DNA from: a bacterium | Lineage (GTDB): Bacteria > UBA10199 > JACPAL01 > GCA-016699445 | Reading direction: 5' to 3' | DNA: 64,000 bases | Assembly: GCA_035454885.1 (NCBI GenBank) | Contig: DATIGE010000056.1 | Coordinates: 9,290 to 73,289, forward strand | Shown: piece by piece, positions 9,174 through 18,193 of the stretch | Position numbering within the stretch: position 1 is the stretch's first letter | Layout: each line of letters opens with the position of its first letter | The notes under the pieces: generated by a model | What the model saw: the letters and a program-made list of their open reading frames with translations, nothing else | What the model was told of the DNA's origin: nothing | Database searches by the model: none | Translations under genes and position numbers: made by a program

Positions 9174-10151
9174 ATGTCGGGGACACAATGCGCGGATTTC
9201 GGGGGAACGGAACTGGGGGAAACCCTGTGCGTCATGCCGGAGGGTCACGTCTATCCGGGACTCATCACGTACCGCGACGGGCGCGTGGCGGACATCACCT
9301 CGGAGAGCGGGGGAACCGTCGTCATCGCGGGGCCCAACGGCACGGGGACGGTCACGATGGAGGGCGTCGGCGCCGAATCACTGGCGATCACACGCGGCAT
9401 GGCGGACACGGAAATCGGCGATTGTTCCGCGCGCGGGATGGGCGGGGTCTCCTTCTCCCCCATGATGTCACGCTACGAGGGCGAGGAGATCACCTGGTCC
9501 GCGGCCGAGGCCCGCGAGCTTTCGCGAATCCTCGGCGTGTCGGGGACGCGTTCCGGATCGGCGTTTTTCTGCTCGAATCGCGAAAACGCGGGCGCCCTAG
9601 TCGTGGCAAGCGACGCGTTCCACCGTCCGGACCTGATCGCCGGCATCGAAACCCTCGACTCTTCTTGCGGCGATCTCGATGACACGCACTGCGCGGCCAT
9701 GCTCGCCTCCTTGAGAACGGCCGCCGGAATGCCGGCCCCCGAATCGTGGTGGAACCAGATCCGGGGCATCGCGGGATACTTGATCGGCGGCGTGGTCGTC
9801 TTCGTCGTGGGCGGTTTGGGTTCGCACGTCGCGGCTCGGTGGTGGGACGGACGCGGTGGCGACGGCAACCCTCCGGCCGGCGGGGCCGGCACGGGATCGG
9901 GCACCGGCGTGAGCGCGCCTTCATCGAACCCTGTGAGTGAGACGACGAGCGCCTTCACCGAGGAACAAGGACTTTGGACGGGACTCGCTGTCACCTGCGG
10001 TGTCGCCGCCGCGATCCTTTGGGCTGACGACGCGACCGTCATCGGCGTCGTGGACGACCCCGTCGCCGCCGTCGCAACGGTCGCCGCCGTCGCATTCCTG
10101 GGGCTCGCCGTCTTCTCGGGCGAAGACACGTCCGGCGTGCCGGAGGCGTAA
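9174..10151 (+). CDS. family A paralogue 1 (325 aa): Cys-containing N-domain, one TM helix, Gly/Pro-rich tail
   Basis: GGGAGGA RBS. The first ~215 aa align clearly with the products of 10318..11403 and 17027..18193 (MSGxxCxD(F/Y), GRVA(D/S)I, AGP(N/T)G, GDC(S/A)A(R/Q)G, ITW, AF(F/L)CS). TM helix IAGYLIGGVVVFVVGGLGSHV, followed by WWDGRGG. Confidence 0.8.
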   Translation: MSGTQCADFGGTELGETLCVMPEGHVYPGLITYRDGRVADITSESGGTVVIAGPNGTGTVTMEGVGAESLAITRGMADTEIGDCSARGMGGVSFSPMMSRYEGEEITWSAAEARELSRILGVSGTRSGSAFFCSNRENAGALVVASDAFHRPDLIAGIETLDSSCGDLDDTHCAAMLASLRTAAGMPAPESWWNQIRGIAGYLIGGVVVFVVGGLGSHVAARWWDGRGGDGNPPAGGAGTGSGTGVSAPSSNPVSETTSAFTEEQGLWTGLAVTCGVAAAILWADDATVIGVVDDPVAAVATVAAVAFLGLAVFSGEDTSGVPEA

Positions 10152-10258
10152 AGACATTTCCTCCCTTTGTTAAACTCCTTGTTTCCCTTTTGAATCACGA
10201 AAAACCCGAATTGCTCCGGGCGGTTGCCGTTCTTTTGCCATCGCGTCGTTTTTGAAAC

Positions 10259-10286
10259 GCAACATTTCCAACGCGGAGCCGATAAC
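10259..10286 (+). promoter_or_regulatory. cluster promoter motif copy 4: GCAACATTTC..-N15-..(G)CCGATAAC
   Basis: GCAAC is at 10259-10263 and the exact octamer GCCGATAA at 10278-10285, 32 nt upstream of ATG 10318. Confidence 0.6.
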
Positions 10287-10317
10287 CAAAACGGATCTCT
10301 TAACTCATGGAGGCTCT

Positions 10318-11403
10318 ATGTCGGGTAATCAGTGCAGTGACTTCGGGGGGACGAATCTGGGGGCGAGTTTGTGTTCGATGCCGGCCGGGCACGCCTACGA
10401 AGGGCTGATCACCTATCGGGACGGCCGCGTGGCGTCGATCCGAAGGACCGACGGGGCCAACACCATTTTCGCAGGACCTAACGGAACGGGCGACATCACC
10501 CTCGCCGACTTGGGAACGGCCGCCATCGCCCTCACGCGCACCCTGGCGGGAGGCGAGGTCGGCGACTGCGCCGCGCGCGGCGCCGGCGGCGTTTCGTTCT
10601 CAGCCCTCCAGACCACCTACAACGGCTCCGCGATCACCTGGGAAGCCCCCCACTTGGCAGCGCTCTACCGCGCCCTGGGATCTTCGGGAGGTCAATCCGG
10701 AAACGCCTTCTTCTGCTCGAACCGCGAAAACGCACGGGCCTTGGTCGTCAACAACGACACTTTTCACCGCCCCGCCCTCTTGGCGGGGATCAGCGCGCTG
10801 ACCTCCAACCGGAGCAATTTCTCGGAATTGGATGACGCCCACTACAACGCGATGCTCCAGTCGCTCCGCGCCGCCGCCGGCGTGCCGGAGCCCCAGTCCA
10901 CGTGGGACCAGGTCAAGGGCATGGGGGGGTACCTCGTGGGCGGTATTCTCGTCTTCATCCTCGGCGGCGTCGGCGCACACTTGGTTTCGAAATGGTTCGA
11001 CAACCGCGGCGGGCCCAAGGGTCCCGGCAGCGGAAGCGGCGGAGGAGGCGATCAAGACGCCTTCGTCCGCGGACTGATCGAAGGACTCCGCGCCGCGGGC
11101 GCGACGATCCCGGAACCGGTCGCCAACCCTACGCCCGTAGCGAACCCGACGCCGACCGGAAATCCCGTCACCAATCCGGGAAATGCCCGGGTCGCGAGCG
11201 CCCTCGACATGGCCCGGGCCATCCGGGGCTTCAACGGCGGCACGTCCGTGGTCCCGGGCGCACCCGGAGCGGTTCCCAACGTCGCCGGTCCCGGCGTCAA
11301 CCCGGCGCTCATTCCGGTGCCGGTCCCGCCTCCGGTGGTCGTCCCGCCGGTCGTGGTCCCGGCCCCCGCACTGGTTCCCCGGCTCGTGCCGGTCGTTCCG
11401 TAA
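10318..11403 (+). CDS. family A paralogue 2 (361 aa)
   Basis: The start is set at ATG 10318 (GGAGG at 10309-10313). From there the N-terminus MSGNQCSDFGG aligns residue-for-residue with MSGTQCADFGG of paralogue 1, and the promoter motif lies inside the longer TTG-10252 ORF of the track. TM helix MGGYLVGGILVFILGGVGAHL. The tail has a VANPTPVANPTPTGNPVTNP repeat and a terminal Pro/Val run. Confidence 0.8.
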   Translation: MSGNQCSDFGGTNLGASLCSMPAGHAYEGLITYRDGRVASIRRTDGANTIFAGPNGTGDITLADLGTAAIALTRTLAGGEVGDCAARGAGGVSFSALQTTYNGSAITWEAPHLAALYRALGSSGGQSGNAFFCSNRENARALVVNNDTFHRPALLAGISALTSNRSNFSELDDAHYNAMLQSLRAAAGVPEPQSTWDQVKGMGGYLVGGILVFILGGVGAHLVSKWFDNRGGPKGPGSGSGGGGDQDAFVRGLIEGLRAAGATIPEPVANPTPVANPTPTGNPVTNPGNARVASALDMARAIRGFNGGTSVVPGAPGAVPNVAGPGVNPALIPVPVPPPVVVPPVVVPAPALVPRLVPVVP

Positions 11404-11459
11404 AAATTAAGCCATTCCTTCTCCAAAAACCCGGGGGATGCCGTTGAAAGGAGCCTTGA

Positions 11460-16827: not shown

Positions 16828-16856
16828 ATCAGTAGAAAGTCCGCTTTGATTTCAAA

Positions 16857-16890
16857 GGGCCGGGGGAACCCCCCGGCCCTTTTTGTTTTT
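16857..16890 (+). terminator. rho-independent terminator after family B paralogue 3
   Basis: A 10-bp GC stem (GGGCCGGGGG at 16857-16866 pairing with CCCCCGGCCC at 16870-16879), a 3-nt loop, then TTTTTGTTTTT. Confidence 0.75.
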
Positions 16891-16956
16891 CCGCCGGTGT
16901 CTTTTCACCTCGAAATGTTAACAATTGTTATCATAAAAATATATTTACTGAAATAA

Positions 16957-16984
16957 GCAACATTTCTTCGTCCCCGCCGAAAAC
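16957..16984 (+). promoter_or_regulatory. cluster promoter motif copy 7: GCAACATTTC..-N15-..(G)CCGAAAAC
   Basis: GCAAC is at 16957-16961 and CCGAAAAC at 16977-16984, followed by CAAAACGGAGCC as in copy 4. It lies 43 nt upstream of ATG 17027, with an AT-rich tract upstream. Confidence 0.55.
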
Positions 16985-17026
16985 CAAAACGGAGCCTCAC
17001 TCTTTCGAACAGTCAACGGAGGTCAT

Positions 17027-18193
17027 ATGTCTGGAGAACTGTGCAGCGATTATACGGCAACAAAAATGGCGGAAGGGCTTTGCTTGACAGCGGCACAACA
17101 CCCGCTCGGTGAACTCTACCTCTATGCGAACGGCCGCGTTGCCGACATCAAGGAAGTATCCGGCGATAAGGTCACCTTTGCGGGTCCAACCGGACAGGGC
17201 CGATACGACTTGGAAGGCGTCACCCCAGACTCCCTGGAGAATACGCGGAAGATGCAGGGCGCGGAGGTGGGCGATTGCTCGGCCCAGGGCGGCAGCGTCT
17301 CCTTCGAGATCCTACCGACCGACAGCGGCATCACCTGGACGGCCAAGGATCAGATCGCCCTCAGTCGTATCTTTGGAGACCGAGTCGGCCGCGCCTTTCT
17401 ATGTTCGGACCCCCACAATCAGGGCACGATCGGCATCAACACGAGCAAGGCCTTCAATACCCAACTCATCCGGGGCTTCAAAAAACTTCAAAGCGAATGC
17501 TCCTCTCTCCTGGGCGAAGGTTCCGCCGACAAATGCGCCGCCTTGAAGGGCGTCGCTAATCTCTACGTGCCAAAGGGCGAGCAATCGACCGGGGAAAAGA
17601 TCAAGGCGACCGCGATATATATCCTCGGCGGTATCTTCGTCTTTGCCGTGGGCGGACTCGCGGCCCACATCCTGGGCAATTGGTGGAACAACCGCGGCGG
17701 CGGCCCGAAGCCTCCGTCCGGAGGCGGTGGAGGCGCGAACGATCTGGCCGCCGTGGCGAGTCTCCTTGCGGCACTGGCCGCAGCCGCAAATGGGCTGAAA
17801 AATGCCCCTCCCTCGTCCCCCGCTCCCGGATCCCCGCCGGAAGGCCATCCCCGCGTTTCCTTCCCGTCTGAGCCCACGGAGATCCGCGTGACCGGACGGG
17901 GCACCTCCTGGGAGGAATACGCCGCCGGGGCGACGATCTTGGTCGCGACCGCCTTCCTCCTTCACAAGGCCGGAAAAGGAAGGGCCGGGGGCGTCGTCGC
18001 GGAGGAGGGCGTCATGGCGAGCTTCCGCCGTGTGGCCTCGCGTTACGCCATGCCGGCCGCCGCGGCGGCCGCCGGGGCCGTCGTCCTCATGAACCTTCCG
18101 AATGATGCCCAGGCCGCGCCCAATGGTGGCGGCACGGGCACGCAGGTCCAGAAGAACAAGGCCACGCTCGAGCTGTATGGAGGCTCCGAATAG
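17027..18193 (+). CDS. family A paralogue 3 (388 aa)
   Basis: GGAGG RBS. The N-terminus MSGELCSDY plus GRVADI, AGPTGQG, VGDCSAQG, ITW, AFLCSD, TM helix AIYILGGIFVFAVGGLAAHIL and WWNNRGGGPKPP align with paralogues 1 and 2. The tail is unrelated and Ala/Gly/Pro-rich. Confidence 0.8.
   Translation: MSGELCSDYTATKMAEGLCLTAAQHPLGELYLYANGRVADIKEVSGDKVTFAGPTGQGRYDLEGVTPDSLENTRKMQGAEVGDCSAQGGSVSFEILPTDSGITWTAKDQIALSRIFGDRVGRAFLCSDPHNQGTIGINTSKAFNTQLIRGFKKLQSECSSLLGEGSADKCAALKGVANLYVPKGEQSTGEKIKATAIYILGGIFVFAVGGLAAHILGNWWNNRGGGPKPPSGGGGGANDLAAVASLLAALAAAANGLKNAPPSSPAPGSPPEGHPRVSFPSEPTEIRVTGRGTSWEEYAAGATILVATAFLLHKAGKGRAGGVVAEEGVMASFRRVASRYAMPAAAAAAGAVVLMNLPNDAQAAPNGGGTGTQVQKNKATLELYGGSE

Follow-up and report, generated by a model that had tools for sequence, protein, structure and literature searches.

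Three genes of an orphan protein family, here called family A, lie in a 64,000-nucleotide stretch of bacterial DNA (contig DATIGE010000056.1 of assembly GCA_035454885.1, positions 9,290 to 73,289 of the forward strand), which is referred to as the window and whose numbering is used throughout. They occupy the forward-strand open reading frames (ORFs) 9174..10151 (A1, 325 amino acids), 10318..11403 (A2, 361 amino acids) and 17027..18193 (A3, 388 amino acids), within an island of 11 co-directional genes that spans 23 kb (1118..24268). In order, the island encodes proteins of 649, 560 and 1356 amino acids, A1, A2, the three members of a second family (B1, B2 and B3), A3, and two members of a third family (C1 and C2). 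Each family A protein is predicted to consist of a cysteine-bearing N-terminal domain (N-domain) without a signal peptide, a single transmembrane helix, and a C-terminal part that diverges from copy to copy. In A1, the N-domain (residues 1-190; 9174..9743), which carries cysteines 6, 19, 84, 133, 165 and 173 and for which an alpha/beta fold is predicted, is followed by a Gly-rich helix (residues 198-218; 9765..9827) and the motif WWDGRGG. The corresponding helices of A2 and A3, likewise assigned by hydropathy, cover residues 202-224 (10921..10989) and 199-217 (17621..17677), and each of the three helices has a Kyte-Doolittle mean of 2.0-2.1 over 19 residues.

Both this architecture and the three paralogous ORFs had been proposed in a first-pass annotation of the same DNA, made from the sequence alone, and both hold up. 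Because BLASTP aligns A1 with A2 at an E-value of 1.8e-95 and with A3 at 3.8e-46, the similarity is not compositional, an outcome that the annotation itself had named as fatal to its proposal. All of the motifs it listed, namely MSGxxC(A/S)D(F/Y), LC, GRVA(D/S)I, AGP(N/T)G, (I/V)GDC(S/A)A(R/Q)G, ITW, AF(F/L)CS(N/D) and W(W/F)(D/N)xRGG, are found in the alignment, as is the single strongly hydrophobic stretch that it placed after the N-domain of each copy. Two of its figures needed revision. The shared region extends over about 229 residues instead of about 215, and the three copies in the window are part of a set of five, since two further paralogues reside on other contigs of this genome (2.76 Mb in 82 contigs). 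One of the latter contains an insertion of about 95 residues that forms a second 'GLITYxDGRVAxI' hairpin. Relative to A1, A2 and A3 are 49% and 37% identical over their full length, and 58% and 41% identical over the N-domain and helix (the first ~229 residues).

Family A is a real, very rare and lineage-restricted family of predicted single-pass membrane proteins. A word-indexed search of 5.8 billion proteins returned only five further members, and an exhaustive HMMER search among 1,835,955,588 representatives, with a profile built from the N-domains of the five paralogues, gave 40 matches at E <= 1e-3, 35 of them at E <= 1e-10. Two of these matches, P0040 and P0042, consist of 9 and 11 short stretches with odd Pfam rows, none of them passing, and were taken as spurious. 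They were left out of the 37-row alignments on which the counts below are based, together with P0002 (N-truncated), P0007 (identical to the paralogue on contig C57) and the partial or fragmentary P0010, P0011, P0025, P0028, P0030 and P0036. Among 41 related genomes, family A occurs in three (the present genome, a congeneric one and another from the same family, with about five to six matches each) and in none of the 35 that lie beyond the family-level group; when one genome per species was scanned, a single soil metagenome-assembled genome contained it. Family A was thus found in just one family-level lineage of uncultured soil bacteria. No match for it was found in Pfam, NCBIfam, PHROGs or PADLOC, a statement that covers family libraries and not print, and the three window copies gave no Pfam family at E <= 1 and no NCBIfam family. 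Close orthologues are known as proteins only, and the relatives for which DNA is available are 30-44% identical. DNA contigs from a second sample of the same study differ at one position in 3 kb, with an identical A1 tail, a weak observation from a sample that is perhaps not independent.

Exchangeable C-terminal cassettes

Beyond the shared region, the tails of the three window copies part ways. The A1 tail carries a cassette, T1 (residues 266-315; 9969..10118), in which hydropathy shows two further hydrophobic helices with the acidic loop ADDATVIGVVDDP between them. That of A2 ends in a Pro/Val-rich cassette, T2 (11302..11400; ...PALVPRLVPVVP), and that of A3 in a cassette in common with P0008. 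The first-pass annotation had described these tails as unrelated, low-complexity sequences that diversify at a hypervariable end. They are indeed unrelated to each other (27-34% identity in forced global alignment), but with the A1 helices they are not all of low complexity. Nor do they diversify faster than the rest of the protein, as orthologue tails are kept as well as the N-domains: 84% against 82% for A1 and P0002, 88.5% against 90% for A2 and P0004, and 69% against 67% for A3 and P0008.

Tails change instead by exchange of whole modules. A1 and P0003 share 77% of their N-domain residues and only 33% of their tail, while P0003 and P0006 agree better in the tail (70%) than in the N-domain (59%). 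BLAST comparison of 32 tails placed the Pro/Val-rich end in P0003-6, P0016 and P0027, and the two-helix hairpin in P0009, P0012, P0015, P0018, P0021 and P0039; further clusters are P0019/23/24, P0014/38, P0037/43 and P0033/34, in addition to singletons. Within the genome, the T1 hairpin is limited to A1 and the C57 paralogue, both of them family A genes, and is absent from A2 and A3, and the strict Pro/Val end (T2) is present only in A2 and in the family C gene 21338..24268. The unrelated family C proteins, both in the island and in the genome of the same genus, end in the Pro/Val-rich or hairpin cassettes known from family A. Furthermore, the cassette of the P0013 tail recurs in an ORF outside family A (C10:4352-5077, + strand; 65% over 48 amino acids), which adds to the evidence of cassettes moving between protein families. 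In combination, the variable end pictured in the annotation is better described as a set of recurrent modules exchanged as wholes, also carried by family C, than as a fast-evolving surface, and the tails look like interchangeable modules common to families A and C.

Multi-copy genes with exchangeable C-terminal cassettes recall polymorphic toxin, immunity or phage-derived modules, in which an N-terminal trafficking domain would carry variable C-terminal payloads, and the long C-terminal domains of P0014, P0022, P0031 and P0038 would suit such payloads. As in polymorphic surface and toxin proteins (Rhs, CDI and MYXO-CTERM-type tags), the modules are exchanged among paralogues and with unrelated N-terminal families. 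In contrast to those systems, no match to a known family of toxins or sorting tags was obtained for the cassettes, which are conserved between orthologues. A scan of 12 extended members gave no credible Pfam toxin domain, and the 11 island proteins gave no match in Pfam, NCBIfam, PHROGs (0/11) or PADLOC (0/11). In addition, no small immunity-like gene follows the copies, the next genes being members of family A, B or C, and the cassettes are for the most part short tails, either hydrophobic or rich in Pro. A toxin or phage-derived origin of the module is therefore considered very improbable.

The N-domain and its side of the membrane

When residues 1-190 of A1 were modelled with the 37-row alignment, the prediction reached a mean predicted local distance difference test score (pLDDT) of 92.2 and a predicted template modelling score of 0.86, with a pLDDT of 85 over the first ten residues. 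The model has a beta-rich first half and an alpha/beta second half that ends in two long helices. Foldseek found no match at E <= 1e-3 among 350,542 Protein Data Bank (PDB) chains (best E 0.18, TM-score at most 0.22), VIA-align found none at Z >= 5 among 48,161 representative chains, and a viral structure library gave none at E <= 1e-3. The best VIA-align match, 7y8u_F, aligns 91 residues at Z 4.5 and a root-mean-square deviation of 3.7; by the program's own note, models without a clear match usually reach Z 7-8. As its match list samples the N-terminal third poorly, the claim made here is that no match was found, short of a proven new fold. A sequence-profile search of the PDB with family A gave nothing below E 0.02, and only Gly-linker noise from scFv (single-chain antibody fragment) chains. 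The known cytoplasmic enzyme fold that the first-pass annotation had named as a finding against it did not turn up with Foldseek or VIA-align. The N-domain is thus a confidently predicted fold that is so far unmatched among solved structures.

Other predictions were less informative. The full-length model reached a pLDDT of 63, with the tail below 50, and as its long helices dominated the matches, fold searches with it were set aside for those with the N-domain model. In the ESM Atlas, the best feature score for A1 (0.82) lies within the range of shuffled sequences, and the Atlas model has a pLDDT of 0.36. A two-copy prediction of A1 residues 1-229 with the 37-row alignment (score 0.00, mark 0.42) speaks neither for nor against a homo-dimer.

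The cysteines of the N-domain follow a pattern of pairs. Cys6 and Cys133 are invariant, Cys84 is present in 36 of the 37 rows, and Cys19 in 34 by column; its three absences (P0033, P0037 and P0038) reflect misalignment, as the cysteine there precedes another copy of the hairpin. The number of N-domain cysteines is even in 34 of 37 members (four in 11, six in 20 and eight in three). The accessory pair, Cys165 and Cys173 in A1, is complete in 22 members, missing in 14 and represented by a single cysteine in one, so that the rule of both or none holds in 36 of 37, and the alignment segments show the loop that it closes to be of either of two lengths. In members with a duplicated hairpin module, the cysteine is found in one copy and Phe in the other, which tallies with the single cysteine of the N-terminal CxD motif; where CxD is itself duplicated, in P0026, P0029 and P0032, the LC cysteine is duplicated as well. 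The tails of 28 of the 37 members contain no cysteine. A homologue of VKOR, an envelope disulfide-forming enzyme, was found in the genome, and DsbB was not. An even-cysteine bias and the paired gain and loss of cysteines are treated as accepted indicators of disulfides in the available text of PMC2823432. Given the even counts and the paired gain and loss, we infer that the pairs are disulfides, in which case the N-domain would lie outside the cytoplasm.

No route through a classical signal peptide is apparent. In none of the 37 members do the first ~45 residues contain a 10-residue hydrophobic stretch with a mean of at least 2.0, and all 37 begin with the pattern M-x(1-4)-C-x-[DQSN]. The A1 frame is open for just 10 further codons upstream of its start, so no signal peptide is possible for this copy, and the absence noted in the first-pass annotation stands. 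The charges around the helix would suit a reverse signal-anchor: in 34 of 37 members, the 15-residue stretch that follows the helix has a higher net charge than the 15-residue stretch that precedes it (equal in two, lower in one), with means of +1.27 and -0.84. In addition, the loop between the two helices of the T1 hairpin contains four Asp, and Lys or Arg often precedes the first of these helices, an arrangement that fits an outer N-domain because it is expected with a cytoplasmic linker. Cysteine parity, flank charge and hairpin charge, all of them predictions, agree in favouring an N-out/C-in orientation. The annotation had presented the topology as a puzzle between export of the N-domain by a dedicated route and a cytoplasmic metal site; the puzzle is real, and of its two options the former is favoured by the even counts, the accessory pair and the flank charge.

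The opposite orientation would place the N-domain in the cytoplasm, where its four core cysteines would bind Zn or an Fe-S cluster, with the helix as an ordinary signal-anchor and the tails in the periplasm. It would make the lack of a signal peptide the default for a bitopic protein, the four near-invariant cysteines could form a single site, and the Pro/Val- and Gly-rich tails resemble linkers that span the periplasm. Additionally, the layout recalls anti-sigma factors and further one-helix signalling proteins; anti-sigma-like proteins of this kind have the same order of N-domain, helix and divergent Gly/Pro-rich part, also without a signal peptide. Unlike anti-sigma factors, however, family A has no Pfam anti-sigma or zinc-finger (zf-HC2) domain and no adjoining sigma gene, the 11 island proteins containing no sigma-70 domain, and its charges and cysteine parity suggest the reverse topology. 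The core cysteines are widely spaced (6, 19, 84 and 133) and form no CxxC knuckles, and the paired coming and going of the extra cysteines, as well as the duplicated pairs of P0026, P0029 and P0032, would be needless for a single metal site. The charge bias runs the wrong way in 34 of 37 members, and the acidic hairpin loop would face the cytoplasm. We consider this orientation unlikely. If it is nevertheless correct, family A would still represent a new metal- or redox-type domain joined to exchangeable membrane tails.

Several observations weigh against an outer N-domain. Cysteine numbers are odd in P0015, P0023 and P0024, the pairings are read from patterns in the sequences, and a four-cysteine metal site is possible. 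As the members are related, the counts of parity and charge are not independent and overstate the support. The charge bias amounts to only about two charges, and with Lys and Arg alone the side after the helix is richer in 25 of 37 members, equal in six and poorer in six. The helix itself is marginally hydrophobic in some distant members (0.67 in P0039, 0.92 in P0015 and 1.07 in P0014), and Pro-rich tails, being commoner as periplasm-spanning linkers, would fit an inner N-domain. Finally, across the members the N-domain measures 187-328 residues, and 190-330 residues translocated at the N-terminus without a signal peptide would greatly exceed the N-tails of known examples such as ProW (about 100 amino acids).

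N-tail proteins are nevertheless the closest known counterparts in layout. ProW and the Pf3 coat protein, inserted by YidC or Sec (PMC9360617), resemble family A in lacking a cleavable signal peptide, in the one hydrophobic helix whose C-terminal flank is the more positive, and in a predicted N-out orientation. The N-tail proteins covered in the available text of that source have short tails only. In place of a tail of tens of residues, family A would translocate a folded and probably disulfide-bonded domain, and there is no relation in sequence or fold. If the N-out orientation is true, family A would far surpass other bacterial proteins in the length of a signal-less N-terminal domain carried across a membrane, even without any link to type III secretion. 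An outer N-domain would be an exception to the rule that export of a large domain usually requires a signal peptide, implying an unusual use of Sec/YidC or a dedicated route; the latter is conceivable for family A.

Sigma-28-type promoters and candidate export routes

Alignment of the upstream regions of the five paralogues revealed an element common to A1, A2 and A3, GCAAC-N16-CGA(A/T)AA, or more fully GCAAC(A/T)TT-N11-GCCGA(A/T)AA, and a GGAGG ribosome-binding site before every ATG. Upstream of A1 it reads GCAAC-N16-CGAAAA (9100..9126, + strand), with the -10 sequence GCCGAAAA, 47 nucleotides before the ATG. The A2 copy (10259..10285, + strand) has the -10 sequence GCCGATAA and lies inside a longer ORF that begins with TTG, for which reason the ATG at 10318 was taken as the A2 start. 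The A3 copy (16957..16983, + strand) again has GCCGAAAA. The sigma-28 -10 consensus given in the available text of PMC12784957 is GCCGATAA, to which A2 is identical. The spacing is also compatible with sigma-28, whereas the -35 sequence, GCAAC(A/T)TT, is unlike the TAAA(G)-type of that factor. Immediately after the -10, a further 10-11 bases are conserved (CCAAAACGGAG and variants) at 9127-9137, 10286-10296 and 16984-16994, and across paralogues and genera at L015:11904-11914 and L009:1058-1068; they could be the start-site region or a signal in the 5' untranslated region.

The element is found far more often than expected by chance, as the window contains eight matches where 0.06 would be expected. 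Of these, six are located 22-58 nucleotides ahead of the 649-amino-acid gene, A1, A2, B2, B3 and A3, and a variant with a 17-nucleotide spacer precedes C1. Apart from those of family A, the window sites are at 1033-1059, 13227-13253, 15144-15170 and 18238-18265 on the + strand and at 54550-54576 and 63212-63238 on the - strand. With a looser pattern, the genome contains 59 sites against five in a reversed-sequence control, and 45 of the 59 have an ORF of at least 100 amino acids within the next 130 nucleotides. The element also precedes family A genes in the same-genus and same-family genomes and family C genes in the same-genus genome. Of 32 non-island genes behind it, 22 have no Pfam family, three encode surface proteins with thrombospondin type 3 (TSP3) repeats and two encode Ser/Thr kinases; some sites, such as those at UvrA and FtsZ, are probably chance occurrences. 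A FliA/WhiG-like sigma gene (C13:8520-9149) contains regions 2 and 4 and reaches 141.8 bits, short of the curated cut-off at 189.6. Together these observations suggest a large sigma-28-like regulon composed mostly of orphan genes.

A comparable regulon is known from Bdellovibrio bacteriovorus, in which the FliA motif TTAAG-N16-CCGATA is reported for 92 of 140 attack-phase promoters in the available text of PMC3627812. The element described here has the same layout and the same -10 (CCGATAA), and likewise precedes many mostly uncharacterised genes. It differs in its -35, which is GCAAC and not TTAAG or TAAA, and in being known from sequence alone; neither filament nor rod genes of a flagellum were found in the present genome.

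In the reading that we favour, and hold tentatively, family A comprises N-out single-pass proteins of the sigma-28-type regulon that have a disulfide-bonded periplasmic N-domain of unmatched predicted fold and interchangeable cassettes, and that belong to an orphan envelope apparatus together with the neighbouring 1356-amino-acid protein. Each gene would be transcribed from its own sigma-28-type promoter, within a regulon mostly of orphan genes. The N-terminal 190-330 residues would fold into a compact alpha/beta domain with two core cysteine pairs, to which some members add one or two further, accessory ones. The Gly-rich helix would be a reverse signal-anchor (N-out, C-in), leaving the Gly-rich linker and the C-terminal cassette on the cytoplasmic side, with the tail dipping back into the membrane in proteins that carry the hairpin cassette. 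Family A would thereby form the periplasm-facing part of the apparatus encoded by the 23-kb island.

A different proposal is that family A proteins are substrates of a type III gate, leaving the cell independently of Sec and lodging by way of helix or hairpin in the outer surface or in the membrane of a target (prey) cell, much like translocators and the Inc proteins of chlamydiae. One FHIPEP (SctV/FlhA) gene and one FlhB/SctU gene are present in the genome, while no flagellin and no rod or hook domain was found in it; ATPase, secretin and needle genes were not searched for. The type VI sheath family VipB was also not found in the genome. The single FHIPEP gene lies in C13:12700-22400 (loci L018 and L020), where it adjoins two FHA/YscD-like genes and where TPR proteins are also encoded; together with the FliA/WhiG-like sigma gene, which is 11 kb from FHIPEP, these genes span about 14 kb beside secA. 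The cluster may be a remnant or variant type III export system without a filament, and a needleless system resembling the type III secretion system (T3SS) is described for Myxococcus in the available text of PMC12075869. The sigma-28-type promoters of family A and the bilobed hydrophobic hairpin of T1 would suit this proposal, as would the other island proteins without signal peptides, one of which has a tandem Ig-like resemblance (Atlas 0.89, a lead only). Chlamydial Inc proteins and translocators likewise have no signal peptide, and the bilobed hairpin of some family A members resembles theirs, in a genome with a type III gate and a sigma-28-like factor.

There is, however, no direct link between the gate and family A. 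FHIPEP is present in five of five relatives, including three that have no family A, so the type III gate does not track the family. Sigma-28-type promoters can serve a broad programme unrelated to secretion, as in Bdellovibrio (PMC3627812, available text). The N-terminus of family A is structured and conserved, unlike the disordered signal of type III substrates, and the positive-inside bias suggests insertion from the producer's own cytoplasm. Family A is not homologous to Inc proteins or translocators, has its hairpin at the C-terminus and in some members only, and begins with a conserved, folded cysteine domain. We regard type III export of family A as doubtful, and it is quite improbable that the island and the regulon as a whole are the cargo of a flagellum-less gate; in that case, a needleless T3SS-like machine would have its first candidate substrates in family A, as signal-less, disulfide-bonded proteins that insert into membranes and whose swappable membrane or tail cassettes direct where they lodge. 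The family marks a conserved 23-kb island and a sigma-28-type regulon, consisting almost entirely of unknown proteins, in an uncultured and apparently non-flagellated soil lineage with a type III gate, and these supply a concrete set of candidates for what needleless systems handle.

The island around family A

The island begins with the genes for the 649- and 560-amino-acid proteins (1118..4811, + strand). At least four more copies of this pair are found in the genome (three pairs on C32, and others on C79 and C36). The tandem Ig-like resemblance mentioned above belongs to the 649-amino-acid protein (Atlas feature score), which has no signal peptide. Upstream of the island, and reaching window positions 1-858, C56:1-10186 (- strand) encodes three large surface proteins with signal peptides; two of them have TSP3 repeats and hydrophobic-basic C-terminal tags, and two have a sigma-28-type promoter.

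Directly upstream of family A is the gene for the 1356-amino-acid orphan protein (4956..9026, + strand). Homologues of it adjoin family A on the upstream side in the same-genus and same-family genomes (G001:C165 and G003:C80), and the order in the same-genus genome is 676, 631 and 1452 amino acids, three A genes and three C genes. The protein gave no PDB match at E <= 1, and BLAST self-comparison revealed no repeats at E <= 1e-3. It contains one cysteine, and the motif [LIVM]xxR[YF][PGA]x[FL], identified by eye and regular expression only, appears six times in its second half. An 832-amino-acid membrane AAA+ protein (C38:39102-41597, - strand) is likewise preceded by a promoter of the sigma-28 type and ends with one similar motif.

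The three family B paralogues (11460..13193, 13278..15053 and 15214..16827, + strand) are interleaved with family A over 11460..16827 and were found in the two genomes of the genus only. After B3 stands a terminator-like hairpin (16854..16882, + strand) of 13 G+C-rich pairs followed by a T run, the strongest of the region, and this predicted terminator separates A3 as a transcription unit of its own. A sigma-70-like promoter match is located at 16918-16945. The two family C genes (18288..21338 and 21338..24268, + strand) close the island at 18288..24268; like their relatives at L015 14286-20631, they encode orphan proteins of ~1000 amino acids without a signal peptide.

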